Shown here piece by piece: positions 12,910 through 39,613 of a stretch of DNA of 64,000 nt. A program made the position numbers and the translations under genes. Where the stretch lies: the NCBI GenBank assembly GCA_044224405.1, contig JBGAKN010000005.1, forward strand, positions 15,725-79,724, written 5' to 3'. The stretch comes from Tagaea sp. (lineage in GTDB: Bacteria > Pseudomonadota > Alphaproteobacteria > CACIAM-22H2). Every line of letters starts with the position of its first letter. The first letter of the stretch is position 1. The notes beneath the pieces are model-generated. The model did not search any database. It was given only the letters and a program-made list of their open reading frames with translations, and had not been told where the DNA came from.

Positions 12910-12921
12910 TACGGAAGTTCC

Positions 12922-14678: not shown

Positions 14679-14680
14679 GC

Positions 14681-16613: not shown

Positions 16614-17369
16614 CTAGCCGTTGGTCCTGCCAATACGCTTCGTGTCCCGGTGCGCCGCGTTGATCTGCGCGATCTCCGGTCTCGATTCGAGAATGCGGCA
16701 GATATTCCGCCAGTCGTCGCCGCTACCGTCTGCGGGAAGGATCGCGAACAGCGCCCTGAAAAACTCCAGGTCCGCCGGATAGTCCAGCGTCCATCTGTGC
16801 TCGACCCGGACGCCACCTGGCCCCTTCAGCGCCGCACGCCGGATGCCGGGTTCGCGCCGCAACCACGGGGTAACATGCTCCCGGTCTTCGGATGCCGTCG
16901 CGTGCCGCGCCGCCTGTTCCAGCGCGTCGCGGGTCATCGCTTCGCAGTCCAGTCCGTGCGGGAATCCCGGCGGCATGTTGTTCGCCGCGTAGTCGGCCGA
17001 TTCGGCGCGACGCAAGGCCAGTACCTCGCCGCAGAGCTGCGGATCGATAAGTGGGCAGTCGGACGTCACGCGCAGGACCTCCTCCGCATCGAAGGCCGCG
17101 GCTGCAAGCCGGTAACGCTCGAGCACGTCGGCGGTCGGCCCGCGCACGACGGTGGCACCGGCGCGCGCGGCTTCCGCAGCGACTGGATCGTCGGCCGGCG
17201 CATCGGCGACAGCACAGCAGACGGCCGTTGCGCTCGGTATCCGCGCACAGCGTGCCAGCACTTCGGCAAGAACCGTGCGTGCGCCGAGACGCTCGAGCAC
17301 CTTGCCCGGCAACCGCGTCGATCCGAAGCGCGCCTGCACGACGATCAGCGTTCTCGGGGCCGCACTCAT
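16614..17369 (-). CDS. cytidylyltransferase, CTP_transf_3 family (second SpsF/PseF-like copy)
   Basis: Motif QARFGSTRLPGKVL is present. It is a paralog of 12922-13674. Confidence 0.6.
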   Translation of the reverse strand: MSAAPRTLIVVQARFGSTRLPGKVLERLGARTVLAEVLARCARIPSATAVCCAVADAPADDPVAAEAARAGATVVRGPTADVLERYRLAAAAFDAEEVLRVTSDCPLIDPQLCGEVLALRRAESADYAANNMPPGFPHGLDCEAMTRDALEQAARHATASEDREHVTPWLRREPGIRRAALKGPGGVRVEHRWTLDYPADLEFFRALFAILPADGSGDDWRNICRILESRPEIAQINAAHRDTKRIGRTNG

Positions 17370-18124
17370 GTCCGCCGAACCGGAAGGCCGGCTTCGCGCA
17401 GAGCCTCGCGAACCTCGCGTGGCGTCGTTTCGGTAAACTGGAATATCGCGCCCGCCGCGACGCTCGATGCCCCGCCGTCGCGCACGGCGGCGACGAAATC
17501 GGCCGCACAGCTTGCCCCGCCTGACGCAATCACTGGGATCCGGACCGCGCGCGCCACCTGGCCGATCAGCTCGGTGTCGTAACCGCACATTGCCCCGTCG
17601 CGTTCGACGGATGTGAGCAGGATTTCGCCGGCGCCGCGCGCCTCAGCCTCACGGGCCCACGCAACAGGATCGCGTCCGGTCGGGCGCGTCGCCGAATGGG
17701 AATGGACCTCGTAGCCCGACGGTGTGCGACGCACGTCGATCGCCACGACGATGCACTGGACGCCGAAGCGCAGCGCCCCCTCCTCGATAAGCGACGGCTG
17801 GGCAAGTGCGGCGGTATTGATGCTGACCTTGTCGGCGCCGACCATCAGCAGTTTCTCGATGTCGCCAACGTCGCGCACGCCGCCGCCCACGGTCAGCGGC
17901 ATGCTGCAATCGTCGGCCAGTTCGTCGATCAGGCCGAAATCCGGCGCGCGGCCGTCGCGGGTGGCGGCGATGTCGAGGAAAAGCAGTTCGTCGACATCGC
18001 GCAGGTTGAAGACGCGGACCGCCTGGGCGGCCGTGCCGATCCGACGGTCGGCGGCGAAGCCGACGCCTTTGACGAGACCGACATCGCGATGAAGCAGCGT
18101 CGGGATGATGCGGATCTTCAGCAT
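17366..18124 (-). CDS. imidazole glycerol phosphate synthase cyclase-subunit paralog (HisF/WbuZ-like)
   Basis: Start MLKIRIIPTLL.. and (beta/alpha)8 HisF motifs are present. It is embedded in the glycan locus next to HisH and amidotransferase paralogs. Confidence 0.75.
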   Translation of the reverse strand: MLKIRIIPTLLHRDVGLVKGVGFAADRRIGTAAQAVRVFNLRDVDELLFLDIAATRDGRAPDFGLIDELADDCSMPLTVGGGVRDVGDIEKLLMVGADKVSINTAALAQPSLIEEGALRFGVQCIVVAIDVRRTPSGYEVHSHSATRPTGRDPVAWAREAEARGAGEILLTSVERDGAMCGYDTELIGQVARAVRIPVIASGGASCAADFVAAVRDGGASSVAAGAIFQFTETTPREVREALREAGLPVRRT

Positions 18125-18747
18125 CAGGACTGCCCGATCGCCAGGAAATTGCGCAGCACGCGCTGGCCCGGCTTCTGGCTCTTTTCGGGATGGAATTGGG
18201 TCCCGTAGATGTTTTCCCTGCGGACCGACGAGACGATCCCGCCGCAAGCCGGCGTCCTTGCCGCGACATTCCCGGCCGGACAGGCAAAATGATAGGAGTG
18301 CACGAAATAAAAATCGGTACCCGGCTCGATTCCTTCAAACAGCGGCGAACCGGGGAGCGCAACGACCGCGTTCCAACCCACATGCGGGACGCGCTCGTCC
18401 GGCGAGCCCGGCTCCAGTTTGCGCACCTCACCCGGCACGAGTCCGAGGCCTGCGACCGCTTCATGCTCGTGGCCGATCTCGGCAAGAAGCTGCATCCCCA
18501 GACAGATCCCGAGCATCGGCACATGTCGGCGTGCGAGTTCCCCACGCAGTTCGTCCGCCAGTCCGCTTTCGACGAGATTGCGCATGGCCGCCGGAAAGGC
18601 GCCGACGCCGGGCAGGACAATGTGGCTTGCCGCCGACAGCCGGCCGGCCGTGCGCACGAGATCGACCGTCGCGCCCTGCTTGACGATCGCGCGCGCGATC
18701 GAATCGATATTGCACAGGCGGTAGTCGATGATGGCGACTTCAGGCAT
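18124..18747 (-). CDS. glutamine amidotransferase HisH paralog (WbuY-like)
   Basis: Class I GATase catalytic Cys region GICLGMQLL and a C-terminal HPEKS segment. Start MPEVAIIDY. Confidence 0.75.
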   Translation of the reverse strand: MPEVAIIDYRLCNIDSIARAIVKQGATVDLVRTAGRLSAASHIVLPGVGAFPAAMRNLVESGLADELRGELARRHVPMLGICLGMQLLAEIGHEHEAVAGLGLVPGEVRKLEPGSPDERVPHVGWNAVVALPGSPLFEGIEPGTDFYFVHSYHFACPAGNVAARTPACGGIVSSVRRENIYGTQFHPEKSQKPGQRVLRNFLAIGQS

Positions 18748-18764: not shown

Positions 18765-19910
18765 TCAGGTTACCGGCGCGACCCGGATCGGCCTGCCGGT
18801 CGCGTCCTTCAGCAGCTTGCCGGCGGCATCCGACTTGAAGATCTTCTTGTTCGTGAAGCGATCGCAGATCGCGACGAACTCGTCGGTGGTCATTCCGATC
18901 TCGGCGAGGATCTCGGCGAGCGGCCGGCCGAGATAGGTGGCAGGGAACGCACCGTCGTGCCGCCGGACGATCTCGAGACCGTCGCGCCGCGTCAGGCGGC
19001 CCCGCCGGACATGGTTGTTGACGATGTCGGTGGCGCGGCCGAACCCGAATTTCAGGTATTTGAAATAGTCGTGGATGCCGGTCTGGTAGTTGTCGAGATT
19101 CTCGTAATTGACGCTTGCGCCCTCGACGGTCTGCGGGAACGTCTCGAAACCGAACGCCTGGGAGATGAGCGCGTTCTGGTAGCCGTCCCACGGGAAATAG
19201 TAGCCGAGGAAGAGGCCCGTGACGCCCACGCGCTTGAGTTCGGCATCGGACGGATACTGGTATTGGATGAGGTATTTGGAATCGATCTGCGCCTCTGCTG
19301 CCAGATCGGCGACGCGCAGGCCGAGAAGCCCGCCGAACTCCTCGAGCCAGCGTCGGTCGAGCGTGCTGCTTTCCTGGTTGGTTGCAGGGCCGCCATACTC
19401 GTTCTGCGGGTTCTCGCCCCAGACGATGAGCCGGATTCCCATCTGCACGGCCACGCGCACGGGGATCGTGAAGATCGTCACGTGTTCAGGCCACGAGATG
19501 TCGCCGACCTCGCGCAAGGCAAGGCGGTTGAGCTGGCGGCGGATCACCGGGTTGACCGTGACCTCGACATAGTCGACGCCAAGCCGCTTGATGTTCTCGA
19601 TGTTCCGCCGGCCGAGATCCGACAGCGAGTCCGTCGTCGCCGTGACGCAGAGCGGGTTCAGACCCTGCTGGAGGAGACGGATCACCTGGTAGGTGCTGTC
19701 CTTGCCGCCGGAAACCGGAACGATGCAGTCGTAGTTGGAACGGTCGGCGCTACGGTGGCGATCAAAAATCTTGGTGAATTCTTCCTGCCGCCGGTCCCAG
19801 TCGATCTCCGTGCGACGCGAGAACGCAGCGCAGGCCGCGCACACGCCGTTCGAATCGAATGTCAGATCCGGCTTGGAGTCGGGATAGAGGCAGGATTTGC
19901 AGTGACGCAT
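18765..19910 (-). CDS. N-acetyl sugar amidotransferase (PP-loop ATP pyrophosphatase; WbuX/PseA-like)
   Basis: N-terminal Cys cluster (CKSCLYPD...CAACAAF) and PP-loop SGGKDS. Start taken at MRHCKSC. Confidence 0.7.
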   Translation of the reverse strand: MRHCKSCLYPDSKPDLTFDSNGVCAACAAFSRRTEIDWDRRQEEFTKIFDRHRSADRSNYDCIVPVSGGKDSTYQVIRLLQQGLNPLCVTATTDSLSDLGRRNIENIKRLGVDYVEVTVNPVIRRQLNRLALREVGDISWPEHVTIFTIPVRVAVQMGIRLIVWGENPQNEYGGPATNQESSTLDRRWLEEFGGLLGLRVADLAAEAQIDSKYLIQYQYPSDAELKRVGVTGLFLGYYFPWDGYQNALISQAFGFETFPQTVEGASVNYENLDNYQTGIHDYFKYLKFGFGRATDIVNNHVRRGRLTRRDGLEIVRRHDGAFPATYLGRPLAEILAEIGMTTDEFVAICDRFTNKKIFKSDAAGKLLKDATGRPIRVAPVT

Positions 19911-19947
19911 CGCGAAGACCCCGTGAGGTGTTGGACGTTGTCGGCCG

Positions 19948-21138
19948 TCAGCCGAAGAGCGTGCTGCGCAGTGCCGCGACCGTCCACTCGACGTCGGCAT
20001 CCGACATCATCGGGAAGATCGGCAGCGAAAGGCAGCGCCGGTAATAGGCTTCCGCGCCCGGCAGGCTGATCTCGCCGTACCGGTCGCGATAATAGGGCTG
20101 CCAGTACAGCGGAATGTAGTGGACCTGCGTGCCGATCCCCTTCGCGCGCAGGGCGCGCATGACCGCGGCACGGTGCGTCTTCAACGCGTCGAAATCGATC
20201 AGGACGGCATAGAGGTGCCAGCCATGCAGGGAACCCGCGCGCCGGGTGATCGGCCGCAGGGCCGGAGCCAGCGGGCGCAGCAACTCGTCATAGAGCGCCG
20301 CGATCTCGCAGCGACGTCGGTAGAAGCCTTCAAGCTTGCGAAGCTGCGACTGACCCAGAGCGCAGAGCAGGTCCGGAAGCCGGTAACCCCAGCCGATTTC
20401 GGGCATCTCGTGATACCAGGGGTTGGGCTCCCCGTCCGGTCCGAAGGCGAGATCCCGGTTGCGCAGACGTGCCGGATCGCGCTCGATCCCGTGTGCGCGG
20501 ATCATGCGCATGCGGCGGGCGAGATCGGCGTCGGCGGTCGTGGCGACGCCGCCTTCGGCCGTCGCGATTGCCTTGACCGGATGGGTCGAGAAGATCGCCG
20601 CCCGGCTGTGCGGCGTGCTGCCGATGCCCGGCGCGCCCAAGCTGTGGCACGCATCTTCGACGATCGCCAGCGAATGGCGCTGCGTCGCTGCGGCCACTGC
20701 GGCGACATCCACCGTCTGCCCGTTGAGATGGACCGGGAAGACGGCGCGCGGACGCCCGAGTTTCGCGGCGCGCGGGAGCGCCGCCTCGACGGTCTCCGCG
20801 GTCGCAAGACCGGTCTCGGGGTCAACGTCGCAGAAAGCGACTTCCGCCTCGCAGTAACGCGAGGCGTTGGCCGTCGCGAGGAAAGTGATGGCCGGCACAA
20901 TGCTGACATCGCCCTGCCCCAGGCCGATGCCCTGTGCCGCGATATGAAGTGCCGCCGTACCGGTGCTGCAGGCCACGGCATTCCGGCTCGAGACCGCAAT
21001 GGCAAAATCGTGCTCGTAGGCCTCCACGCGCGGACCGGCGGTAAGGAAGTCGTCCTTCAGCGCCGCGGTGACGACGGCGATGTCGTCGTCGTCGATCGTC
21101 TGGCGTCCGTACGGCAGAAATCCGGAAGCGTTCGTCAT
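19948..21138 (-). CDS. pseC: UDP-4-amino-4,6-dideoxy-N-acetyl-beta-L-altrosamine transaminase
   Basis: DegT-family enzyme with the PseC-typical N-terminus FLPYGRQTIDDDDI. Confidence 0.7.
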   Translation of the reverse strand: MTNASGFLPYGRQTIDDDDIAVVTAALKDDFLTAGPRVEAYEHDFAIAVSSRNAVACSTGTAALHIAAQGIGLGQGDVSIVPAITFLATANASRYCEAEVAFCDVDPETGLATAETVEAALPRAAKLGRPRAVFPVHLNGQTVDVAAVAAATQRHSLAIVEDACHSLGAPGIGSTPHSRAAIFSTHPVKAIATAEGGVATTADADLARRMRMIRAHGIERDPARLRNRDLAFGPDGEPNPWYHEMPEIGWGYRLPDLLCALGQSQLRKLEGFYRRRCEIAALYDELLRPLAPALRPITRRAGSLHGWHLYAVLIDFDALKTHRAAVMRALRAKGIGTQVHYIPLYWQPYYRDRYGEISLPGAEAYYRRCLSLPIFPMMSDADVEWTVAALRSTLFG

Positions 21139-21168: not shown

Positions 21169-22221
21169 TCAGTCGATCAGGTCGAACGACAGCGGTGTGC
21201 CGCGCGCGAGATCCCGGCGCGCCTTGCGGCCGAGCACGTTTGCGGCATGGCGCGGCGCAAGCCCGTATCCCGGACGGATCGCCCGCACATTGCGCGTCGT
21301 CAGGGCTTCGCCCGCCCGGATATTCTCGACGACATAGAGCGACCTGCGCAGATCGCGCTGTGGTGCTTCGCTTTCGCTGACCGCGTAGTCGATGCGACCG
21401 AGCGCCATATGCGCGTTTCGGGTCGCCACGACGAGCCGTTCGAGTTCGTGCGGCTCGAGCGAGAAGGCCGAGTCCGGCCCGCCGTCGGCGCGGCGCAGCG
21501 TCACGTGCTTCTCGATCAGGGTGGCTCCCAGTGCCGTCGCCGCGACCGAAACCTCGATGTCGATCGTGTGGTCCGATAGGCCGATCGGCACGCCCAGCAG
21601 GTCTCGCATATGCGGGATCGTGCGCAGATTCATGGCTTCGGGCGGCGCCGGATAGGCGCTGATGCAGTGCAGGACGACGAGCTCGCGCCCGCCCGCAGCA
21701 TGGAACGCATCGACAGCCTCCATCATCTCGGCCACGCTCGCGAGGCCGGTCGACATGATCGTCGGCTTGCCGGTGTGTGCGATGCGCTCGATGAGCGGGA
21801 TGTCGACGAGTTCGAAGGACGCGACCTTGTAGGCCGGCGCGCCGAGGCTTTCGAGCAGGTCGACCGCGGCCGGATCGAAGGGCGTGCTGAACACAGTGAT
21901 GCCGAGCCGCCGGCCGATGGCAAACAGCTCGGGATGCCATTCATAGGGTGTCATCGCCTCGCCGTAGAGCTCGTAGAGGCGGCGCCCTTTCCACAACCCC
22001 GCCTCCAGCGCGAAGCCCGGTCCGTCGTGGTCGATCGTCATCGAGTCCGGCGTATAGGTCTGCAGCTTGATTGCGTCGGCACCCGCGCGGGCGGCGGCCT
22101 CCATGATCTCTCGCGCGCGGCCGAGATCGCCGTTGTGGTTCGCCGAAAGCTCCGCGACGATATACGGGCGATGGCCATCGCCGATCTTGCGGCCGGCAAT
22201 CGTGATTTCGCGTTTCTTCAT
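21169..22221 (-). CDS. pseI: pseudaminic acid synthase (NeuB family)
   Basis: NeuB-family N-terminus (PYIVAELSANHNGDL), TIM barrel and a C-terminal SAF/AFP-like domain. The 350-aa length is typical of PseI. Confidence 0.75.
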   Translation of the reverse strand: MKKREITIAGRKIGDGHRPYIVAELSANHNGDLGRAREIMEAAARAGADAIKLQTYTPDSMTIDHDGPGFALEAGLWKGRRLYELYGEAMTPYEWHPELFAIGRRLGITVFSTPFDPAAVDLLESLGAPAYKVASFELVDIPLIERIAHTGKPTIMSTGLASVAEMMEAVDAFHAAGGRELVVLHCISAYPAPPEAMNLRTIPHMRDLLGVPIGLSDHTIDIEVSVAATALGATLIEKHVTLRRADGGPDSAFSLEPHELERLVVATRNAHMALGRIDYAVSESEAPQRDLRRSLYVVENIRAGEALTTRNVRAIRPGYGLAPRHAANVLGRKARRDLARGTPLSFDLID

Positions 22222-22258: not shown

Positions 22259-23296
22259 TCAGCGCGTCTGCTCGATTACGTCGGCCAGCTGCGCGTCGCT
22301 GAACCATTCCGTGTTGTTGTCGCTGCCGTAGCGGAACGTGTCGGGAACCGCACGGGCACCGGCTTCCTTGAGATGCTTGTCGGTCCACGGCCCGATCGTC
22401 GGGCAGATAACATAACGGTCGTCGAGTTCGAGCGTGGTGCGGGCCTCGTCCTCGGGAATCATGACCTCGTGCAGCTTCTCGCCGGGGCGGATGCCGACCG
22501 TCCGCTGCGGCAGGTTCGGCGCAAGCGTGCGCGCGACGTCGGTCACGCGCACCGACGGGATCTTCGGCACGAAGATCTCGCCGCCACGCATCGTCGCCAG
22601 AGACGAGAGGACAAACGCCACGCCCTGATCGAGCGTGATCCAGAAGCGGGTCATGCGCGGATCGGTGATCGGCAGCTCGCGCGCGCCGCCCGCGATCATG
22701 TCGCGGAAGACCGGGACGACGCTTCCACGCGAACCGAGCACGTTGCCGTACCGAACGACGGAGAAACGCGGGCCCGACTTGCCGCCCAGATTGTTCGCGG
22801 CGATGAAGATCTTGTCGGAAGCGAGCTTGGACGCGCCGTAGAGGTTGATCGGATTCGCGGCTTTGTCGGTCGAAAGGGCAATGATCCGCCGCACGTTGCA
22901 GCGCAGCGCCGCCTTGACGACGTTTTCGGCGCCATGGACGTTCGTCATGATGCATTCGAACGGGTTGTACTCCGCCGTCGGCACGATCTTCAGTGCCGCA
23001 GCGTGGACGACGACGTCTACTTCCCGCATGGCAAGCTGCAGCCGATCGCAGTCACGCACATCGCCGATGAAGTAGCGGATATGCGGGAACTCGTTTTCGG
23101 GGAACTGGCGCGACATGTCGTGCTGTTTCTGCTCGTCGCGCGAGAAGATGATCACCTTCGATGGCTTGTGCTTGGCGAGCACGTTCCGGGCGAAGGCCTT
23201 TCCGAAGGAGCCCGTTCCGCCGGTGATGAGGATTGAAGCTCCATCGAGATCCGGGACGGGATTCTCGAAGCTGCGCATGGGCGATGCTGCTTTCAT
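22259..23296 (-). CDS. pseB: UDP-N-acetylglucosamine 4,6-dehydratase (inverting)
   Basis: Motif ILITGGTGSFGK and the PseB/FlaA1-type extended SDR with catalytic YGASK. Confidence 0.8.
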   Translation of the reverse strand: MKAASPMRSFENPVPDLDGASILITGGTGSFGKAFARNVLAKHKPSKVIIFSRDEQKQHDMSRQFPENEFPHIRYFIGDVRDCDRLQLAMREVDVVVHAAALKIVPTAEYNPFECIMTNVHGAENVVKAALRCNVRRIIALSTDKAANPINLYGASKLASDKIFIAANNLGGKSGPRFSVVRYGNVLGSRGSVVPVFRDMIAGGARELPITDPRMTRFWITLDQGVAFVLSSLATMRGGEIFVPKIPSVRVTDVARTLAPNLPQRTVGIRPGEKLHEVMIPEDEARTTLELDDRYVICPTIGPWTDKHLKEAGARAVPDTFRYGSDNNTEWFSDAQLADVIEQTR

Positions 23297-23321: not shown

Positions 23322-24389
23322 TCAGGCGATCAGTGTTCCGGCGAGAATGCCGGCGGTAATCCTGTCGATCGCGTCGCCGTGCGCCGCGCGCACGGATCGC
23401 GCGACCTTCGGCGCTTCCGGTGCTGCGATCCAATCGGCTAGTCCGACTTCGTCGCGGATGACCGCGATGCCGAACTCGCTTTCGTTGAGGCAGAAATAGC
23501 TCGGGTTGGCGCCTGCCGGCCGGAACGACGCCGCCGGCACGCCGGCAATCGCGAGCTCGATCAACATCATCGAGGAAAGGCCGACTGCCATGCGCGTGGT
23601 CTCCGGGCAGACCCACGACGGATCGGCGTCGAGACGCACGTCCTGGGCACGATTGGCGAAGACGAAGCGCCGCCACCCCTCCGAATCGTCCTGAGGATGG
23701 GGGCGGATGACGACCGGAAGCGCCGGCCTCACTTTGTCGCGCGCGACGATCACCGACTTGGCGACGTCAAATTCGTGCACGTGAGCGTCCGGAAAAAGGG
23801 CGTTTGCCGGCTCGGAGATGAAACGCAGATCGCTGCCCCTGCCCGACACTGCATTGCGGGCGAGCAGGTCGGCGAAATGCGGATTGCCCGTGACCGTCGC
23901 GCGCACGCGCCCGTCGAAGGTCGTCCGGATATCGTCCGCCATGCGCTCATCCACGACGAGCATATGGTCGATGAGAAGTTCGCCGTCCCGCCCCTCGAGC
24001 CGGCGCCTATACTCGGTCCACATGTCGCAGATCGCCGCACAAGGAATGCCGCGCGCGCGAGCAAGCCTCCACGTGGTCTTCTCCATGGTGCTGACCGCGC
24101 TCGTGCCCGTCAGTACGCAGTCCCAGCCGCCGTCCGCGAGCAGGGCGTCGAGCTCCGCCTCGTCCAGATCCCATGCGAGCGCGCGCGTCGGCAGCACGGG
24201 CCGCCGCACGGGCGGAAGCCCGCTCGCGCGCGCCAGCATTTCGCCGACCTCGTATTCGACGACGGGCGTTCCCAGGAACGACGCTTCAATGCCGGTTCCG
24301 GGCGCACTCCACCGGCGCAGCAGCGGCACCAGCAGGTTGGTGCCACCGCGATCGTGGCCGACGAGAAGGACGCGGCGCGCTGCAGTCAT
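23322..24389 (-). CDS. hypothetical protein, possible GT-B-like (carries a beta-strand-HP motif, VVIRPHP)
   Basis: No confident family assignment. An HP motif after a hydrophobic strand is shared with three other locus proteins. Confidence 0.3.
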   Translation of the reverse strand: MTAARRVLLVGHDRGGTNLLVPLLRRWSAPGTGIEASFLGTPVVEYEVGEMLARASGLPPVRRPVLPTRALAWDLDEAELDALLADGGWDCVLTGTSAVSTMEKTTWRLARARGIPCAAICDMWTEYRRRLEGRDGELLIDHMLVVDERMADDIRTTFDGRVRATVTGNPHFADLLARNAVSGRGSDLRFISEPANALFPDAHVHEFDVAKSVIVARDKVRPALPVVIRPHPQDDSEGWRRFVFANRAQDVRLDADPSWVCPETTRMAVGLSSMMLIELAIAGVPAASFRPAGANPSYFCLNESEFGIAVIRDEVGLADWIAAPEAPKVARSVRAAHGDAIDRITAGILAGTLIA

Positions 24390-25738
24390 GCCGAAGCCAG
24401 TACGAGAAGGTCGGCCGAAACGAGCGCTTCGAGCGGACGCACAAGCGTCCAGACAGGGACGCCCATCCGATCAGCGATCGACAAAAGGTCGTGCTCGCCG
24501 TCGCCGAAGTTGAGAAGATTCAGGATCTTCACCTGGAAATCGGGAATGCCGGCGGAGACATACTGCGAGTAGAGGCCGCGCTTGCCGAGCTGCGGCTCGC
24601 ACATCGGGTTCGTCCGGATCGGACGACAGTTGGTCTCAATGGCCTGCACGAGGCGCAAATAGGCCTCAAGCGAGCCCTGCATCCCGGCTTCGCTGACGAA
24701 GTCGAGATTGTCCTTCGAGGTGTGATACTCGGCGAACTCGCCGTAACGCGACCGCATCAGCGATCCGACCGGCAAGTTGAGTCCCGGCGAGCAGTACTGG
24801 CGCTCGTCGCTGCCGACCGGGTCGAAGTCGCGCAGCAGGCAGGTCCGGCCTTTCGCCGCAGCCATGTGTCGCGCAACGTGCTCGCCCGCGCGGTCAATGA
24901 TCGTGCCGGCACGGCGCGAACGCAGGAACGTGAAAGGGCCGTCGTCACCGACGCAAGTAACGACGCTGCCTGCGATCATGTTGCGACTGAGCGCTTCGTG
25001 ATGCTGCGACAGGAACGCGATGGCGCCGATCGTCTCCGGCACGAACACGGCCCGGAAGCCGTAGGGCGCACCGGGGATTGCGCGCAGTGTCTCCATCAGC
25101 GCGGCCAGAAGAACGATGCCAGAAAGCTGGTCGTTGGCGAGTGAGGGGTGGCAGATATAGGTCGAGAAGAATATCTCGCCCGGGCTCTCCCCGGGCAGAC
25201 GGAGTTGCGCATAGTCGAGCGCACCCGGCGCGAGCGTGCTGTCGACCACCACTTCGTACTCGCCCTCGGGAAGCGCTTCGCGCTGGCGATGGGTGAGGCA
25301 GAAGCCCCAGTTCTCGTTGTAGTAGCTCGCGCGATAGGGAATCGCGTCGGGATAATCGGGCAGCGAATGCAGTTGCGGCTGCAGTTCGGCCAGCGTCATC
25401 TTGCGCCGCACCGGGCAGCTGTAGCTGACGAGATGGAGATTATTCGCCTTGAAATCGATGATGCGCCGGCCCGCAGCGTCCTTGATGTAAGCGTCGCGGA
25501 TATTCCACTCGTTTGGCACGCGCCAATCGAAGCAGGCGGTACCCGTCGGAACGCGGATGCGCTCGAGCTGCAGCGTCTCGCCGACCACGTCGAGTGTGTC
25601 GCGCACGCCGGCACCGGTGATGCTGCGGCAAAGCGGGAACAGCCGGTGCATGCGCGGCATCAAGGCCGGCAGACCGTCGGCGATCGCCTGCTCAATCGCG
25701 GCGGCGCGGGTGAAATGTCTGGAGGGTTCGAGGCTCAT
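24386..25738 (-). CDS. hypothetical protein, DUF4910/M28-peptidase-fold-like
   Basis: 450-aa protein resembling aminopeptidase-like domain proteins found in glycan and antibiotic clusters. This is a weak call. Confidence 0.3.
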   Translation of the reverse strand: MSLEPSRHFTRAAAIEQAIADGLPALMPRMHRLFPLCRSITGAGVRDTLDVVGETLQLERIRVPTGTACFDWRVPNEWNIRDAYIKDAAGRRIIDFKANNLHLVSYSCPVRRKMTLAELQPQLHSLPDYPDAIPYRASYYNENWGFCLTHRQREALPEGEYEVVVDSTLAPGALDYAQLRLPGESPGEIFFSTYICHPSLANDQLSGIVLLAALMETLRAIPGAPYGFRAVFVPETIGAIAFLSQHHEALSRNMIAGSVVTCVGDDGPFTFLRSRRAGTIIDRAGEHVARHMAAAKGRTCLLRDFDPVGSDERQYCSPGLNLPVGSLMRSRYGEFAEYHTSKDNLDFVSEAGMQGSLEAYLRLVQAIETNCRPIRTNPMCEPQLGKRGLYSQYVSAGIPDFQVKILNLLNFGDGEHDLLSIADRMGVPVWTLVRPLEALVSADLLVLASA

Positions 25739-25749
25739 CTGGGCTGCCG

Positions 25750-26574
25750 TCAGAGGAACGAATAGTCTTTGGTCGGGTCCGGCAGGCGGAAGCCCTCGCG
25801 GCTACGGAACTCCTTGAGATGGGCATTGCCCGGTACGGAGTACATGTAGTCGAGATAGGCCTGCAGGTTCGTCGGATTGGACGCGGCGATCGTGAAGAAG
25901 ATCGCATACTTGCCACCCGGCGGCATCTGCACGCCCGGCGCCTGGGGCGTCGCGCAATGGATCATGCGCATGTCCCACAGCACGCAATCGCCGGCGCGCG
26001 TCTCGATGGCCCGCGCGCGCGGATGATCGCGCATCTTCTTGTCCCAGTCGAAGATCCGGCCACCGCTGAAACGATGAAGAAGACGTCGCCACCACGAGTT
26101 GCGAACGAGCTTGCGCAGCGCGGCCTTTTCCGCCGTCAGCTTCACGTAAGGATCCGGTTCGAGATGCGAACCCGGCACCAGACTGATGCCACCGCCTCCG
26201 AAATTGTCCTGCAGATAGATCACCACAGTGACGATCCGGAAATCCGGCAACCGGTGGAAGCCGTTTCCACTCATCTCAGCGCCAGTCGTGTCGGTATGGA
26301 AAGCACCGAAGCCGTGCCGCGCGATCGAATGGTGCGGCACGAGAACGAAAGGGCTTCCCAGAACTTCGGCGAGACACTCGCGGAGCTGCGGCACGTCGAT
26401 GAGCTCGCGTACGCGCGGATAGGTGATGGCCGTCTCGTTGATGACGGTCCCGCCGAACTTGTCGAACTCGGCGGTTACGAAGTCGCGCCATTCGGCCATC
26501 CGCGCCTGCGGAATGACGCCGGGAACGACGAGATAGCCGTCGCGTCCGTACTGCTCGCGGTGGGACTGGGTCAT
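25750..26574 (-). CDS. phytanoyl-CoA dioxygenase (PhyH)-family Fe(II)/2-oxoglutarate oxygenase
   Basis: PhyH-like length and a HxD...H arrangement (HTDT...H). Start taken at MTQSHREQYGRDGY. Confidence 0.55.
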   Translation of the reverse strand: MTQSHREQYGRDGYLVVPGVIPQARMAEWRDFVTAEFDKFGGTVINETAITYPRVRELIDVPQLRECLAEVLGSPFVLVPHHSIARHGFGAFHTDTTGAEMSGNGFHRLPDFRIVTVVIYLQDNFGGGGISLVPGSHLEPDPYVKLTAEKAALRKLVRNSWWRRLLHRFSGGRIFDWDKKMRDHPRARAIETRAGDCVLWDMRMIHCATPQAPGVQMPPGGKYAIFFTIAASNPTNLQAYLDYMYSVPGNAHLKEFRSREGFRLPDPTKDYSFL

Positions 26575-28349
26575 GCGGAATGGCTCTCCGTTGCCGAACC
26601 CCGGCGCGAACTGGACCGGGCCTTGAGATCGTGGACGACCAGATCGAGAAGCTGGCGGATGTCCTGCACGCCCATCGCTGCTTCGTCGGAAAGACGCACG
26701 TCGAACATGTCCTCGACCATCGCCAGGAGCTGGACGTGGCCCAGCGAATCCCACTGCGCGATCGCCGTGCGCGGCGTGTCGAGCGAGATTTCGACCGGCG
26801 GAACCGCGAATAGCTGCGCGATCGAAGCGGTCAGCTTCGCGCCGATCGCGGCAACGTCGACGCCGCGCCCCGTCGTACGGCTGGCGACATAGAGCTCGAC
26901 GAGCCGGTCACGCACGACCTTGCCGAGCTTGTTGACCGGCAGCGCATCGATCTGAAGGATCTGTGTCGGCACCTTGTACGAGGCGACCCGCGAGCGGAGC
27001 GCGCCGAGCAGGCGCGGCGGCTCGATCGGCGCGTCGGAGGTCACGTAGGCGACGACGTCTTGGCCTAGGATCGGATGCGGCACGCCGACCGCGGCCGCCG
27101 ACCTGATCCCGGGAATCGCGCACAGCGCCTCCTCGATCTCCAGAGGGAAGATCTTGTACGCGCCGCGGCTGATCACCGTCTTCGCACGCCCGACAAGAAC
27201 GATGTTGCCGTCCGGATCGATGCGCCCGAGATCGCCGGTCTGCAGCCAGCCGTCGACGAAGCTGGGCGGTTCCGTGCCGATGAAGCGGCTCGCGACGTTG
27301 GGGCCCGTGACCTGGAGCTCCCCCACTTCGCCCACGTCCATCTCGATGCCGGCCGCATCGACGATGCGGACGCGGTTGACGTCGAGCGGAAGCCCCGCCA
27401 CGCCGGGCCGCCGGATCTTCGGATCGAGGCTGTTGAGCGCGATGCCGCACGTGCATTCCGTAAGGCCATAGCCCTGGAGCAGCGGGATTCCGAAACGCGT
27501 CTCAAAGGCGGCCTGGTCCGCAGGCGGAAGATAAGCCGAGGCAGTGCCTATGAAGCCCAGATGCGTACGCGTCGACGGCGCCGGCTCGGCGGGCGACCGG
27601 TTGAGGATCGCGACGTGGCTAGGCACGAGCTGGACGAACTCGATCTTGCCGTCCGCGATATCACGCCAGAACGTCTGCGGATCGAGCTTGCGGCGCATGT
27701 GGATCGTGCCGCCGGTCAGCAGCGGCATCAGCAGGCTGCGATAGAGGCCGGAAACATGCGCGTAGGTCAGGATCGACCCGTGCTGCATCGGGCGATCGAA
27801 AGCATAGGCGCGCAGCATCGAATCGAGTTCCGCGAGGATGTTCGCGTGCGTGTGGACGACGCCCTTGGGTTGGCCGGTCGTGCCGGAGGAGAAGATCGCG
27901 AAGGCCGGCGATTGGGCCGTGCTGTCCGGAGTGCGGCGCGTTGCATGCCCCGGCGTAGCCGACAGGTCGATGTTGCGCACGCCGTCGATATGCATGGTGC
28001 GTCGCACGACGGCTTCCGGACCGACAAGACGCACATAGTCGGCAAGCTGGGCGTCGGGAATCTCGGCGTCGAGCAGCGCAAGGCACGCACCCTGCCAAAG
28101 GCCGGCAAGGATCAGGGCGGCGAGCCGGCTCGAATTCTCCATACACACGAGCAGCGTCGCGCCGGGTCCGAGGCCCGCCCGGGAAAGTTCCTCGCGCACG
28201 GCGGCAACGTTCCCGTCCAACTCGGCATAAGTAAGCGTCGCCCCGGTGTCGAGATCGCGAAAGGCAACGCGCGCGCCATGCGCGTCGAAGGACTGCGCGA
28301 GCGCGGCGGCGACATTGGCGTATGACGTGATGCGTTGGTTCGATGCCAT
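26571..28349 (-). CDS. acyl-/aminoacyl-AMP ligase (adenylation domain) fused to an acyl-carrier-protein domain
   Basis: AMP-binding motifs (SSGTTGQPKGV, YGLTE, GDLGRIDPDGNI, GRAK) are followed by a C-terminal carrier domain with the phosphopantetheinylation motif DSLGHVQL. Confidence 0.7.
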   Translation of the reverse strand: MASNQRITSYANVAAALAQSFDAHGARVAFRDLDTGATLTYAELDGNVAAVREELSRAGLGPGATLLVCMENSSRLAALILAGLWQGACLALLDAEIPDAQLADYVRLVGPEAVVRRTMHIDGVRNIDLSATPGHATRRTPDSTAQSPAFAIFSSGTTGQPKGVVHTHANILAELDSMLRAYAFDRPMQHGSILTYAHVSGLYRSLLMPLLTGGTIHMRRKLDPQTFWRDIADGKIEFVQLVPSHVAILNRSPAEPAPSTRTHLGFIGTASAYLPPADQAAFETRFGIPLLQGYGLTECTCGIALNSLDPKIRRPGVAGLPLDVNRVRIVDAAGIEMDVGEVGELQVTGPNVASRFIGTEPPSFVDGWLQTGDLGRIDPDGNIVLVGRAKTVISRGAYKIFPLEIEEALCAIPGIRSAAAVGVPHPILGQDVVAYVTSDAPIEPPRLLGALRSRVASYKVPTQILQIDALPVNKLGKVVRDRLVELYVASRTTGRGVDVAAIGAKLTASIAQLFAVPPVEISLDTPRTAIAQWDSLGHVQLLAMVEDMFDVRLSDEAAMGVQDIRQLLDLVVHDLKARSSSRRGSATESHSA

Positions 28350-28378
28350 GATTCTCGTTCCGGTCGGGCGGCCGCTTG

Positions 28379-29176
28379 TTAGCGCGCCCAGGGACGGCGC
28401 TGTGGCGGTGCCGCCAGCAGGCCGTATATGTTCCGCTTCAGGATTGCCATCGTCGATTCGTACATGGCCGCCGCGCGATAGCACCACACGCCGCTGTCGC
28501 CGAGCGCCTCGAAGGCGACTTCGCCTCGATTCGTCATGCGATCGACCAGGCGGTTGGTATCCCACTCGATGTCGGAATCCCTCCATTTCACGTGGTGAAA
28601 ATAGGGGCCCGGCTGCACGCGGCTGCCGACGACGACGGGGATCGACAGTTCTTTACTGTAGCGGTAGGGCACGCCCGCGAAGACTTCGGCGAGGTGGATG
28701 AAGAACCCGCCGCGATGGGGCGAGCGGCCGATACTGACGACGAGCGCATCGCCCTCGACAAGCCGGTGCGTGACCGACCCGTAGCCGTAGGAATGCGCGG
28801 CAGCATTCTCGCAGAGTTCCTTCGCGCGCGGCCCTATGGCGGCAAACGAGAACACCGGATGCACCGACCGGCTGGCACCGGTCCGGACACGCAAATGCTC
28901 GCTGACCGCGCCGGTTTCCGAAGCACTCGTCTCGTGCACGTAGGGACTGTCCGGACCGGTACGGTGATAGGTGAACGTCGGCGCGCAAAGCGTCACGCCA
29001 TCACCCGCCGCCTCGTTAAGCGCGTCGTAGAGAGCGGCCACGCCGGCCCGCTCCCCCGCCCCCGCCCCGCGGCCAAGCGCGGCAAGGTCCGTGATGACGA
29101 CGACATATCGTTGGCCGGCCACGCCGAGACGTCCGAAAAGCGAGCGGATTTCACCGATGTCGACGCCTGCGAACAT
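28379..29176 (-). CDS. AAC(3)-family (Antibiotic_NAT-like) N-acyltransferase
   Basis: 265-aa protein with AAC(3)-like features (GVTLCAPTFTY, HLAEV). Confidence 0.45.
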   Translation of the reverse strand: MFAGVDIGEIRSLFGRLGVAGQRYVVVITDLAALGRGAGAGERAGVAALYDALNEAAGDGVTLCAPTFTYHRTGPDSPYVHETSASETGAVSEHLRVRTGASRSVHPVFSFAAIGPRAKELCENAAAHSYGYGSVTHRLVEGDALVVSIGRSPHRGGFFIHLAEVFAGVPYRYSKELSIPVVVGSRVQPGPYFHHVKWRDSDIEWDTNRLVDRMTNRGEVAFEALGDSGVWCYRAAAMYESTMAILKRNIYGLLAAPPQRRPWAR

Positions 29177-33378: not shown

Positions 33379-33957
33379 CTATGCGGCGCGGATCGCGCCC
33401 TCGAAACGGGTGCGGATATGCGCCTTGGAAAGCGGGATCACGCCGACGCCGTCGGGCATGCCCACCGCAGTACGGACGACAATAACGTGCGGTCCGACGG
33501 TCCCGAAAGCATCAGCGAGCGCCTGTCGCGCTTCGCCGGGCCGCTCCACGGTCCGCACGCTGTCGATGCCTGCTGCGCGCGCAACCGCATCGAGGCGCAG
33601 GCGGCCGGCGGTGAAAGACGGCTGGAAGCCGGTCGAGCCGTTGGCGGCGTTGTCGATGATTATCTGGACGAGGTTTCCCGGCCGAAGGTGCCCCAGCGTC
33701 GCGAAGGCGCCCATGTTCATCGTGACCGACGCATCCCCGTCGATCGCCACGACGGGCCGCGCGGTCGACAGGGCCACGCCCAGCGCCACGCTCGTCGCCA
33801 GCCCCATCGAACCGAGCATGTAGAAGTTCTGGGCGCGGTCGCGGATCCTGAAGAGTTCCTGCGCCGGATGGCCCAGATTGCACACGACCAGGGCATCGCC
33901 GAAAGCTTCGGCCAGTTCCTGGAGCGCCTCGTAGCGCCGATAAGGATTGGTCTTCAC
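33379..33957 (-). CDS. thiamine-diphosphate-dependent decarboxylase, beta subunit (ComE / phosphonopyruvate-decarboxylase-like)
   Basis: 192-aa ThDP-binding C-terminal-type domain (GSMGLATSVALG, GDAS..MN). Confidence 0.6.
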   Translation of the reverse strand: MKTNPYRRYEALQELAEAFGDALVVCNLGHPAQELFRIRDRAQNFYMLGSMGLATSVALGVALSTARPVVAIDGDASVTMNMGAFATLGHLRPGNLVQIIIDNAANGSTGFQPSFTAGRLRLDAVARAAGIDSVRTVERPGEARQALADAFGTVGPHVIVVRTAVGMPDGVGVIPLSKAHIRTRFEGAIRAA

Positions 33958-34520
33958 TTCGCGACCCTCCAGTACGAGAACGGCAGCAGGATCGCCAGCG
34001 AGCTCGCCGCAAGCGCGCTCTCGCGCAACGCGTCGGCGACCAGCGGCAGATCGGAAACGGCACCGGCCGTCGCGTGCCGGATACCCACCAAATCAAAAAG
34101 CGACTGGGTGATGCCGCCCATCATCCTCTGCGCTTCGATCGGCTCGCCATCGCTGCCGCGATGGCTGACGATGAACGTCATCGGCATCGCGTAGTAGTTG
34201 ACCAGAGCCATGATGGCGTTGATCGAATTTCCGAGCCCCGAATTCTGCATCACGATCGCCGGCCGCTTTCCGGCGAGGCCGGCGCCGAACGCGATGCCCA
34301 GCCCTTCTTCCTCGCGCGAAACCGGGCTGTGAAAAACCGCCTGGTCCGTGGCCAAGCGGTCGATGAGGTCGCTGAGAAGCTTGCAAGGCACGGAAACGAA
34401 GAAATCGAGCTTCGCCGCGCGCAGCACGTCATAGAGCGCCGCCGTCGGGTCGGCGGCAACCGGCGCGCTCGGCCTTTGCATAACCATATTCCTGTCACTC
34501 ATGCCTGGTTCACCTCCCAA
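33954..34520 (-). CDS. thiamine-diphosphate-dependent decarboxylase, alpha subunit (ComD / phosphonopyruvate-decarboxylase-like)
   Basis: 188-aa ThDP-enzyme N-terminal pyrimidine-binding-type domain. It overlaps the beta-subunit start by 4 nt. Confidence 0.6.
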   Translation of the reverse strand: MGGEPGMSDRNMVMQRPSAPVAADPTAALYDVLRAAKLDFFVSVPCKLLSDLIDRLATDQAVFHSPVSREEEGLGIAFGAGLAGKRPAIVMQNSGLGNSINAIMALVNYYAMPMTFIVSHRGSDGEPIEAQRMMGGITQSLFDLVGIRHATAGAVSDLPLVADALRESALAASSLAILLPFSYWRVAK

Positions 34521-34524
34521 AAAT

Positions 34525-35904
34525 TCACGCAGCCGCGCGCGATTCGACGAAATCGGCCAACCGGAGCGCGTATGGCGCTTCGAACGGCGTCACGAAAAAC
34601 TCGGTTGCCCGTTTCAACTGGGCGGCAAAGCCGACGTCGCGCGAACGCGCGACGATCTCGGCGACGCCGGCCGCGAGTTCGCCGCGCCCGCTGGCGATCG
34701 CGAATTCAGGCCGCTCGAAAAAGTCGCCGAAATGCACGAATTCCCGATTGATCGACAAGAACCAATTGCCGACATCGGCATCGTCCACGAAACAGAGCGG
34801 CGGCTTGCCGTTCATCGCGGCCTCGAGAAGGATCGTCGAAAGCGGCGAGACGACCGCATCGACGCTGGCCAGCACGTCCCGCGTGTGGCGATAGTCGGGC
34901 GTGGTGATGCCTTGTCGGCCGGCGCCGGCACGTCGGACATACTCGGCCATCGTCGTTTCGAAGGCGACATGCTTCCAGGCGCGGGCCGCGATCCGGCCGC
35001 CATCACGCCCGCAATTGCCCCATGGATGCGGCCGGTAGACGATCGACACGCCGGCGAGCCGGCCGCTTTCGACCTCGCGTTCGAGCACGTCAAGATCCGC
35101 GTACTCGTCGCACCCCTTGCTTGAGCCGGCGTAGAGCACGACGGTGCGCGCCGGATCAATGGCGTGCCGCCGGCAGAACTCGTCACGATCCATCGACGGT
35201 GGCGAACGATAGACTTCGAACTGCGCCGCACCGAACTCGACGACCGATTCGGACGGCATGCCCGCGAACCGCAGCGCATGGGCGCGCGTCTGGGGGCCCC
35301 AGACCAGCAGCCGATCCGGGTGGCCCACCATCGCCCTTTTGGTCGAGGGGTTGTCCCACGAATTCATGATCGCCACGAGCGGCGTGTGCCGACGCCCGAG
35401 GACGTCGACGAGATCGTTCAGATAGAGGCCCGAGAGGACCGTCGGATGCACCACCGCGTCCGGACGCTCCGCTTCGAGCAGGGCCTCGAGCGCCGCGCAT
35501 CCCACGCGCAAGGCCTTCGCCAGCAGTATCCGCCGATAGACGGGCCACACGAACGGTAGGCCGTAGAACCGGTAGATGCGTGCCGTCCATTCGCCGATCG
35601 CGTTGGCGTGGTGGCGCGCCACTGCCGAAGTGTGCGGGTCAAGCCTCCCGCGCAGGCTGTCGATCTGGAACATCCGCTGCCAGATCGCGTTGCGCTCAGC
35701 TGATTCCGGAAGGCGGATCAGGCGGTCGGCAGGCAGCATCGAGATGTCGAGCTCGCGAATGCGCTTGTGGCCTTCCGGAAGGGTCACGTAGCGCACATCG
35801 TGCCGGGACTCGATCTCCGCGAACGCGCCCGACGCGACGAAATGCCGGACGATGATCGGATGATCGAGAAAGACGAGGACCTTGAGGCGTCGGGACACGC
35901 TCAA
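34525..35904 (-). CDS. hypothetical GT-B-like protein (HP motif SIVYRPHPWG)
   Basis: 459 aa. No confident family; an HP motif is shared with 23322, 30046 and 31776. Confidence 0.3.
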   Translation of the reverse strand: MSVSRRLKVLVFLDHPIIVRHFVASGAFAEIESRHDVRYVTLPEGHKRIRELDISMLPADRLIRLPESAERNAIWQRMFQIDSLRGRLDPHTSAVARHHANAIGEWTARIYRFYGLPFVWPVYRRILLAKALRVGCAALEALLEAERPDAVVHPTVLSGLYLNDLVDVLGRRHTPLVAIMNSWDNPSTKRAMVGHPDRLLVWGPQTRAHALRFAGMPSESVVEFGAAQFEVYRSPPSMDRDEFCRRHAIDPARTVVLYAGSSKGCDEYADLDVLEREVESGRLAGVSIVYRPHPWGNCGRDGGRIAARAWKHVAFETTMAEYVRRAGAGRQGITTPDYRHTRDVLASVDAVVSPLSTILLEAAMNGKPPLCFVDDADVGNWFLSINREFVHFGDFFERPEFAIASGRGELAAGVAEIVARSRDVGFAAQLKRATEFFVTPFEAPYALRLADFVESRAAA

Positions 35905-36620: not shown

Positions 36621-36627
36621 CGGTCGA

Positions 36628-38018: not shown

Positions 38019-38026
38019 CGGCGCGA

Positions 38027-39562: not shown

Positions 39563-39613
39563 GGCAGGTTTCCGGAAAGGGGCGGGAAGGTTTTGCGGGG
39601 CGGCCGGTTACGT

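Follow-up and report, generated by a model that had tools for sequence, protein, structure and literature searches.

A candidate carrier-protein-dependent N-acyl tailoring cassette in a pseudaminic-acid operon of Tagaea sp.

A 64,000-nucleotide stretch of Tagaea sp. DNA (contig JBGAKN010000005.1; hereafter the window), with a G+C content of about 66%, carries on its minus strand a cassette of five closely spaced genes that encode, in the order of transcription, an N-acyltransferase of the AAC(3)/FrbF fold, an adenylation domain fused to an acyl carrier protein (A-ACP), a PhyH-type Fe(II)/2-oxoglutarate dioxygenase, a DUF4910-family protein and an orphan protein of predicted GT-B fold (Table 1). 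Nearly all genes from about 40.7 kb down to 11 kb lie on this strand, separated by very short gaps, and the cassette is part of a tight operon with bona fide pseB, pseI and pseC. Our subject is the part that these five genes may play in tailoring the N-acyl groups of nonulosonic acids.

When genes were called independently on two further assemblies with identical proteins, the gene limits came out the same. Stop and start codons overlap (ATGA) at two junctions only, A-ACP/PhyH and DUF4910/orphan; the non-overlapping gaps of the cassette measure 29 nt (acyltransferase/A-ACP), 11 nt (PhyH/DUF4910) and 10 nt, and pseB begins 25 nt downstream of the orphan gene. The first-pass annotation, made by a model from the letters of the window, had described the genes as translationally coupled, which is right for the two overlapping junctions and not for the gapped ones. 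It had also counted four genes lying directly between pseB/pseI/pseC and a set of candidate transferases. That count overlooked the fifth conserved gene, the orphan, which intervenes on the pseB side, while a methyltransferase gene separates the cassette from the KpsC/S-like genes on the other. The four domain types that it named are sound: in hidden Markov model (HMM) searches every Pfam call lies above its cut-off. A scan for promoters and terminators gave no signal above chance, and tRNA and Rfam searches of the window gave no match.

Table 1. Features of the window discussed in the text. Positions count from the first nucleotide of the window; scores are given with model cut-offs where available.
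Feature	Position	Strand	Evidence
AAC(3)/FrbF-fold N-acyltransferase, 265 aa	28379-29176	-	Pfam Antibiotic_NAT E=2e-24
A-ACP fusion (adenylation::carrier protein), 592 aa	26571-28349	-	AMP-binding, AMP-binding_C, PP-binding
Adenylation (ANL) domain of A-ACP, residues 1-~495	26865-28349	-	AMP-binding + AMP-binding_C
Carrier-protein domain of A-ACP, residues ~499-584	26598-26855	-	PP-binding
PhyH-type Fe(II)/2-oxoglutarate dioxygenase, 274 aa	25750-26574	-	PhyH 1e-9
DUF4910/DUF2172/HTH_47 protein, 450 aa	24386-25738	-	Pfam 2e-89 / 2e-39 / 5e-18
Orphan protein of predicted GT-B fold, 355 aa, fifth cassette member	23322-24389	-	Predicted structure, conserved position
pseB	22259-23296	-	NCBIfam equivalog 514 > 407.75
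pseI	21169-22221	-	NCBIfam equivalog 480.2 > 340.25
pseC	19948-21138	-	NCBIfam equivalog 430.8 > 423.5
S-adenosylmethionine (SAM)-dependent methyltransferase, 281 aa	29187-30032	-	Methyltransf_25/23/11
Two paralogous KpsC/KpsS-like proteins, 577 and 532 aa	30046-33374	-	PF05159 sub-threshold, E ~5e-3
WbuX-type N-acetyl-sugar amidotransferase	18765-20000	-	TIGR03573 318.7 vs cut-off 203
WbuZ/HisF-like partner	17366-18247	-	TIGR03572 266
DegT aminotransferase (425 aa, distinct from PseC), GFO oxidoreductase, KdsB-like cytidylyltransferase	12922-15958	-	
Two-subunit thiamine-diphosphate enzyme	33379-34520	-	Sulfopyruvate decarboxylase alpha 147.2 vs 147.95, beta 183 vs 221.5
459-aa protein, no Pfam match	34525-35904	-	BFO_1060 glycosyltransferase family 26.9 bits vs cut-off 200
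Second ulosonate set: GFO/IDH/MocA, NeuB::cupin fusion (511 aa), HAD phosphatase, methyltransferase, cytidylyltransferase	35901-40708	-	
PseG::GNAT (PseH-like) fusion	42486-43931	-	Glyco_tran_28_C + Acetyltransf_3

The protein encoded by the first gene scores 86.9 bits against Antibiotic_NAT (cut-off 25). All NCBIfam AAC_3 models score it far under cut-off (the best, NF033082, gives 62.3 bits against 270), and it is therefore not a resistance enzyme. Its closest solved relative is FrbF (3sma, 1.9e-9), followed by AAC(3)-IVa. The motif H161-x-x-E164, whose His and Glu align with those in the HLAE of FrbF, is kept in all 26 of the DUF4910-linked homologs; in FrbF and AAC(3) the His-x-x-Glu motif has a catalytic role. 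We propose that the protein may act as an acyltransferase from acyl carrier protein to sugar amine.

A-ACP holds the complete set of catalytic motifs of an adenylating enzyme of the acyl- or aryl-acid type, together with an intact carrier domain. Matches to AMP-binding (1e-58) and AMP-binding_C (4e-12) are strong, and the A3 (SSGTTGxPKG), A5 (GYGLTE), A7 (TGD) and A8 (GR) motifs and the C-terminal GK (A10 lysine) are invariant among 16 full-length orthologs. PP-binding is the weakest of the domain calls (23.9 bits against a cut-off of 20.8). The site W533-D534-S535-L536-(G)-H538 is equally invariant among those orthologs, the phosphopantetheine serine being S535 (codon 26745-26747), and in an AlphaFold (AF2) model residues 499-584 adopt a four-helix carrier fold (helices 499-513, 535-549, 555-559 and 564-584), in which helix II starts at S535 and the local confidence (pLDDT) is 86-92. 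The fusion of an adenylation domain to an acyl carrier protein with a DSLGH site, as first annotated, is thus borne out.

The amino-acid adenylation model TIGR01733 gives 174 bits, under its cut-off of 317, and the nearest solved relatives of the adenylation domain are oxalate-, malonate- and o-succinylbenzoate-CoA ligases. The substrate is thus probably a small carboxylic acid and not an alpha-amino acid, and activation of an amino acid as in nonribosomal peptide synthetases (NRPS) was ruled out on these two grounds. The stretch that follows A3, LTYAHVSGLY, reads as acyl-CoA-ligase-like, and the Asp by which NRPS adenylation domains bind the alpha-amino group was not recognised. Full-length orthologs are rare: beyond the window's own there are some 16 clusters at 42-51% identity, after which matches fall abruptly to generic ligases, a pattern that indicates a dedicated enzyme. 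A separate relative, the 995-aa protein P0018 (locus L090, 6716-9703), has adenylation, carrier and condensation domains and is 44% identical to A-ACP over 76% of the length; its neighbors are Ser/Thr kinase and Fic genes, and it has no acyltransferase, PhyH, DUF4910 or orphan partner. The loading didomain thus has NRPS-like relatives outside sugar loci.

For the dioxygenase, the PhyH match (39.5 bits, cut-off 22) is accompanied by an H93-x-D95...H206 triad that is invariant among six orthologs. The invariant HxD motif rules out a halogenase and marks the protein as of the hydroxylase type, so that the original call of a PhyH-type Fe(II)/2-oxoglutarate enzyme can be kept and refined. In a profile search against the PDB the best matches were EctD, SnoK, PhyH and GriE, with SnoN also among the detectable solved relatives; the kinship is remote. 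Among 1.84 billion sequences 13 representatives reach E<=1e-30, so that the subfamily is a small one.

The DUF4910 protein matches its three Pfam families far over cut-off and aligns end to end with 3k9t, the structure of CA_C2195 (E=2e-115). Its architecture, an M28-like DUF4910 domain with DUF2172 inserted and HTH_47 at the C-terminus, is that of the DUF4910/Cj1295/CA_C2195 family (PIRSF015244). The zinc ligands H197, D203 and H339 are present and match H189, D195 and H324 of 3k9t, forming a single-zinc site unlike that of the di-zinc peptidases. We propose that this mono-zinc M28-like enzyme may be either an N-deacetylase or an acyl-exchange enzyme. The site is not uniform across the family, in which Asn replaces the zinc-ligand Asp in 36 of 85 sequences. 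Loci whose protein has the zinc loop CHPSxxNDNLSG (NDN) mostly have no AAC(3)-like neighbor (44 of 48; the other four have one), whereas those with CHPSxANNELSGP (NNE) have such a neighbor in 21 of 36 cases (NDN versus NNE, Fisher p=8e-7). The clade of the window has a third form, CHPSLANDQLSG (residues 194-208), of NDQ type.

Searches of the orphan protein by sequence and by profile against Pfam, NCBIfam and the PDB found no match, membership of Pfam Epimerase_2 included, and its family comprises only 19 clusters among 5.8 billion proteins. An AF2 model (pLDDT 87.5, predicted TM-score 0.84) was more informative: the top 40 Foldseek hits are all 2-epimerases and NeuC, the best being UDP-N-acetylglucosamine (UDP-GlcNAc) 2-epimerases (E to 2.5e-10, TM 0.55-0.66). 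On the strength of this predicted structure the orphan is a GT-B-fold protein resembling nucleoside-diphosphate (NDP)-sugar 2-epimerases and NeuC, and would belong to an unannotated family of the nucleotide-sugar-processing type.

To judge whether the five genes belong together, the window was compared with eight related metagenomic contigs (nine loci in all). The order acyltransferase, A-ACP, PhyH, DUF4910, orphan is kept in L003, L005, L087, L088, L089 and L092; in L006 the cassette is partly eroded and L091 is cut at the contig end. The orphan gene follows DUF4910 in L003, L005, L087, L088, L091 and L092, and in L089 follows it after a two-gene insert. NeuB, DegT, CTP_transf_3 and GFO genes always lie beside the cassette, and an ATP-binding cassette (ABC) exporter and a NeuB::cupin set usually follow it. 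The context is nonulosonate in nine of nine loci, in agreement with the glycan setting proposed at first pass; none of the nine lies in an unrelated setting.

For a wider survey, species-representative genomes were scanned with a DUF4910 alignment, giving 80 loci from many phyla at 45-53% identity. In total 84 DUF4910 loci were analysed with our own open reading frame calls and iterated HMMs, and 52 of these have long flanks. An AAC(3)-like gene is present in the flanks of 24 of the 84, and in 14-16 it lies directly upstream on the same strand. Among loci with long flanks, an adenylating enzyme occurs in 10 of the 16 with an AAC(3)-like gene and in 1 of the 36 without (Fisher p=5e-6); for NeuB the corresponding figures are 9 of 16 and 6 of 36 (p=0.007). 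In Vibrio coralliilyticus, Magnetospirillum sulfuroxidans and a Planctomycetota metagenome-assembled genome, the gene just before the AAC(3)-like one encodes a small carrier protein with a DSF/DSL motif. These carriers were located by position and motif, one of them scoring 20.6 bits in Pfam, just under the cut-off, and a search seeded with E. coli AcpP missed them as too divergent. The link between the adenylation and carrier genes and the AAC(3)-like gene, proposed from one locus, is thereby extended to other phyla.

The enzymes that accompany this core vary from locus to locus: a FabG-type reductase in L015, L021 and L048, an aldehyde dehydrogenase and a radical SAM protein in L084, an HMGL-like protein and a cyclase in L062, a class I/II aminotransferase in L049, and PhyH in the clade of the window. 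Across phyla, identity is 47-52% for DUF4910 but drops to 23-33% for the AAC(3)-like and adenylation proteins. A conserved DUF4910, diverged transferase and adenylation proteins and variable accessories together point to a constant step on the sugar side and an acyl-specific arm for supply and transfer. Two cultured strains illustrate the arrangement. In V. coralliilyticus ATCC BAA-450 (L062, 5265-11242) the genes encode an HMGL-like protein, an adenylating enzyme, a cyclase, a 77-aa carrier, an AAC(3)-like protein and DUF4910; in M. sulfuroxidans J10 (L084, 4809-11242) they encode a radical SAM protein, an adenylating enzyme, an aldehyde dehydrogenase, a 94-aa carrier, an AAC(3)-like protein and DUF4910.

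The genetics of the DUF4910 family come from Campylobacter jejuni. Cj1295 and CA_C2195 define the family (PMC3068675, PMC4000134), the membership of Cj1295 being taken from those papers. Cj1295 is required for Pse5(2,3-di-O-methylglyceroyl)7Ac, and upon its loss the 2,3-di-O-methylglyceroyl pseudaminic acid gives way to Pse5Ac7Ac; for Cj1295 Hitchen et al. proposed removal of the acetyl group at N5 (PMC3068675). The first-pass annotation had left DUF4910 without a role, yet this family holds the only genetically supported member of the cassette (Cj1295; PMC3068675). The phase-variable gene Cj1296/7, annotated as an aminoglycoside N3'-acetyltransferase, adjoins Cj1295 and is in frame in only 3.6% of wild-type reads (PMC3025981). 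Around CA_C2195 the 2014 structure paper reported genes for an aminosugar N-acetyltransferase, an acyl carrier protein, a NeuB-type synthase and a cytidylyltransferase, and proposed a part in synthesising modified carbohydrates (PMC4000134). The combination had been called undescribed; at the level of gene association it was already known (PMC3068675, PMC3025981, PMC4000134). By the stage of the cytidine monophosphate (CMP)-activated sugar, the unusual acyl group is in place (bioRxiv 10.64898/2026.04.20.719630). A literature search for a biochemical assignment of the cassette enzymes found none.

Together these data lead us to propose that the five co-inherited genes form a nonulosonic-acid N-acyl tailoring module that carries out carrier-dependent acyl exchange on a nonulosonate precursor, a reading that we place just on the probable side. 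The anatomy of the locus, its conservation and the statistical linkage of its genes are observed directly; the enzymatic steps, every one of which we infer, most likely serve to replace an N-acetyl group on the precursor with a small hydroxylated acyl group. The adenylation domain would activate a small non-alpha-amino carboxylic acid and load it as a thioester on its own phosphopantetheine arm, and the PhyH enzyme would hydroxylate the acyl group, either on the carrier or just before loading. DUF4910 would free the sugar amine of the N-acetyl that comes with UDP-GlcNAc, as Hitchen et al. proposed for Cj1295, and the AAC(3)-like enzyme would pass the carrier-bound acyl group to the freed amine. 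The re-acylated NDP-hexose may be no substrate for PseG, and the epimerase-like orphan might then strip it of its nucleotide, leaving PseI and a cytidylyltransferase to produce an N-(hydroxyacyl) derivative of pseudaminic acid in CMP-activated form. An acetamidino group would probably be added by the WbuX system, KpsC/S-like enzymes would polymerise the resulting sugar and the ABC transporter would export the polysaccharide.

A broader version of this proposal holds that an AAC(3)-fold enzyme with a carrier donor and a Cj1295-family zinc enzyme constitute a general, modular machine that de-acetylates and re-acylates, and so produces the many non-acetyl N-acyl groups of pseudaminic (Pse) and legionaminic (Leg) acids, with oxygen-dependent PhyH hydroxylation taking place on the carrier in the clade of the window and a hitherto unseen epimerase-like family acting on the edited nucleotide sugar. 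The acid might in this case be sulfonated or dicarboxylic, as ComDE- and ComA-like genes travel with the cassette. We regard so general a machine as possible, with the balance somewhat against it.

From the genes around the cassette, the window is a region of surface-polysaccharide genes in a Gram-negative bacterium: it contains LptD and additional glycosyltransferases, a PglK/MsbA-like ABC exporter lies downstream in the same operon, and a search of the window for flagellar genes found none. Upstream, the two KpsC/S-like proteins are candidate ulosonate transferases or polymerases from their family resemblance, and the pair is kept in L003, L006, L087, L088, L089 and L092. The adjacent methyltransferase gene travels with them as one unit, which in L088 stands apart from the cassette. 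The methyltransferase therefore probably belongs with these two transferases rather than with the acyl pathway, possibly as a chain terminator, and a role as O-methylase of the acyl group was set aside. Downstream, a Pse-associated methylase is recognised by TIGR03587 (166 > 112), and WbuX and WbuZ would constitute the acetamidino-forming system. The DegT-GFO-cytidylyltransferase trio could create an extra sugar amine.

Beyond the KpsC/S-like genes, sulfopyruvate decarboxylase models outscore the phosphonopyruvate decarboxylase model for the thiamine-diphosphate enzyme. In L089 a ComA-like phosphosulfolactate synthase gene (12859-13620) is inserted within the cassette; ComA was found neither in the window nor in any other locus. 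The two hint at sulfonate chemistry in a nonulosonate locus. A sulfonated acyl group was not adopted, ComA being confined to L089 and the pieces forming no single pathway, and is kept as a lead. The next protein, without a Pfam match, has a 457-aa counterpart at the same position in L001, another assembly of the same DNA; in L091 a 456-aa product without a Pfam match is similar in size. The PseG::GNAT fusion, 19 kb from the cassette operon, scores 140 against a cut-off of 153.55 with the PseG model TIGR03590 and matches PseH weakly, and a PseF-like protein scores 115 against 205.7. The fusion also occurs in L005 and L088, in the same gene string as the cassette, and in several unrelated DUF4910 loci, among them L016 and L062. 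With this fusion present, the canonical di-N-acetyl route probably remains available.

Several observations weigh against acyl exchange as proposed above. The di-O-methylglyceroyl sugar is made in C. jejuni with Cj1296/7 out of frame (PMC3068675 Table 1; PMC3025981), which leaves the AAC(3)-like enzyme as a candidate, and no more, for the transfer of the acyl group. The CA_C2195 site fits no known peptidase active site (PMC4000134), and in the very DUF4910 subfamily that most frequently has an AAC(3)-like partner Asn-Asn-Glu replaces Asn-Asp-Asn at the zinc loop. Moreover, an AAC(3)-like gene is absent from 60 of the 84 DUF4910 loci, where NDP-hexose genes are found instead, and a PIG-L deacetylase, found near DUF4910 in 18 loci overall, is common where the AAC(3)-like gene is missing; DUF4910 is thus not obviously the deacetylase. 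The closest relatives of the PhyH protein (EctD, GriE) act on free small molecules, and we know of no AAC(3)-fold enzyme that takes an acyl carrier protein as donor. BtrH of the butirosin pathway, the one characterised transferase from acyl carrier protein to aminosugar that is known to us, is reportedly listed in a classification of papain-like cysteine proteinases; it probably does not have the AAC(3) fold, and we dropped the analogy to a BtrH-type transferase.

Some of these points can be read in favor of DUF4910 itself as the acyl-transferring enzyme, a mono-zinc M28-fold transamidase (compare glutaminyl cyclase) with the carrier as its acyl donor, the AAC(3)-like protein then serving as an ordinary acetyl-CoA-dependent N-acetyltransferase for a different amine. 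The C. jejuni sugar is made with Cj1295 ON while Cj1296/7 is out of frame, the site holds one zinc where peptidases hold two, the AAC(3)-like protein keeps the His/Glu dyad of its acetyl-CoA-using relatives, and cj1295 was still called a 'putative transferase' in 2026 (PMC13130089). The adenylation and carrier genes, however, track the AAC(3)-like gene and not DUF4910 (10/16 versus 1/36), and the high conservation of DUF4910 beside a variable acyl supply argues against an acyl-specific role. A further N-acetyltransferase gene, which we take to lie nearby in C. jejuni, also counts against this exchange of roles, and we consider it distinctly improbable. A related doubt concerns the acceptor, since the DegT-GFO pair and the second ulosonate pathway travel with the cassette: the module might work as proposed, but on an amine that GFO and DegT install on another ulosonic acid, one derived from NeuB::cupin, or on the CMP-derivative of that acid. 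In L005 and L088 the AAC(3)-like gene has the DegT-CTP_transf_3-GFO trio as its immediate upstream neighbor, the ABC-GFO-NeuB::cupin-HAD-methyltransferase-CTP_transf_3 set comes directly after the cassette in L003, L089, L091 and L092 and has its counterpart in the window, and the fifth gene product is epimerase/NeuC-like, not PseG-like. Yet the cassette of the window abuts pseB-pseI-pseC, the A/ACP/AAC(3)-like/DUF4910 module occurs in Pse-type loci of unrelated bacteria that have no NeuB::cupin set (L016, L020, L062), and the sugar affected in C. jejuni is pseudaminic acid (PMC3068675). Such an acceptor is unlikely, although it is the alternative to which we give most weight.

The local operon holds pseB, pseC and pseI and neither pseH nor pseG, and the PseH and PseG steps could be covered by the AAC(3)-like and epimerase-like genes. 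They may thus replace PseH and PseG in a parallel branch that acylates the C4 amine (Pse N7) and needs no deacetylation, DUF4910 being an accessory of non-hydrolytic or proofreading function; most known non-acetyl groups of Pse are at N7, and the orphan has an NDP-sugar-processing fold. That a missing pathway forces this replacement is an argument weakened by the PseG::GNAT fusion, remote as it is in the window, and further by L005 and L088, where the fusion lies in the cassette's own gene string. DUF4910, moreover, is the most conserved and the sole genetically validated member (PMC3068675), and the C. jejuni acyl group is on N5, so that the GlcNAc-derived acetyl must be removed. We retain the replacement as a rival and think it rather unlikely. 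A non-glycan pathway (siderophore, lipopeptide or lipid) placed fortuitously within a sugar locus has in its favor P0018, an A-ACP relative among kinase genes and not sugar genes, and the ubiquity of generic AMP-binding homologs; with P0018 lacking all cassette partners, all nine cassette loci nonulosonate, overlapping stop and start codons binding the cassette to its neighbors and pseB following so closely, we give it almost no credence.

The acyl-exchange proposal bears on a general question. Pse and Leg acids occur on flagella, capsules and O-antigens with N-acyl groups that include 3-hydroxybutanoyl, glyceroyl, di-O-methylglyceroyl, alanyl and formyl, and these groups shape antigenicity, phage recognition and charge. 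To our knowledge, the enzymes assigned to their installation account essentially for acetyl and acetamidino only. A DUF4910 and AAC(3)-like pair, supplied by an adenylating enzyme and a carrier, is found again and again in many phyla, the enzymes that tailor the acid being interchangeable, and is a concrete, testable candidate for the non-acetyl machinery; the general module is also found in the cultured strains V. coralliilyticus ATCC BAA-450, M. sulfuroxidans J10, C. jejuni and C. acetobutylicum. Already known, biochemistry excepted, is the association of DUF4910, AAC(3)-like and carrier proteins in the pseudaminic-acid loci of Campylobacter and Clostridium. New here are the A-ACP fusion, an oxygenase where a ketoreductase is usual and the orphan GT-B nucleotide-sugar family.

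Known systems resemble parts of the cassette to different degrees. FrbF and the AAC(3) enzymes share with the first protein the Antibiotic_NAT fold family and the conserved H-x-x-E motif, but known members depend on acetyl-CoA as donor whereas the donor proposed for the window protein is an acyl carrier protein; FrbF acetylates a CMP-linked amine, a parallel to a CMP- or NDP-sugar acceptor. Halogenases of the SyrB2/CmaB type and related hydroxylases, members of Pfam PhyH, act on carrier-tethered acyl or aminoacyl substrates. The window protein differs from these halogenases in its HxD motif, hence hydroxylase rather than halogenase, and its detectable solved relatives use free substrates. The butirosin pathway (BtrI carrier, BtrJ, BtrO/V, BtrH) follows the same logic, an acid being built and oxidised on a carrier and then moved to an aminosugar nitrogen; there an ATP-grasp ligase does the loading and a flavin system the oxidation.

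Closer in context are the group II polar-flagellin islands of Aeromonas, in which genes for an acyl carrier protein, a 3-oxoacyl-ACP reductase and an AMP-dependent synthetase lie between pseBC and pseFGHI (PMC7874193). These are annotated merely as 'fatty acid synthesis', luxC/luxE are present, and DUF4910 and AAC(3)-like genes are not reported there (PMC7874193). CA_C2195 of Clostridium acetobutylicum shares with the window protein its three-domain architecture and His/Asp/His zinc site; its neighborhood, which lacks the adenylation::carrier fusion, PhyH and the orphan GT-B protein, pairs the carrier with an N-acetyltransferase::HAD protein. The nearest counterpart is the locus of C. jejuni NCTC 11168. 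Its target is flagellin, whereas that of the window would be an ABC-exported polysaccharide made in a locus without flagellar genes, and, unlike in the window, neither a PhyH dioxygenase nor an epimerase-like orphan has been reported for it. Carrier-protein and adenylation genes are presumably also found at the C. jejuni locus, as separate genes, and the same two core families, DUF4910 (Cj1295) and AAC(3)-like (Cj1296/7), stand side by side next to pseB and pseC.

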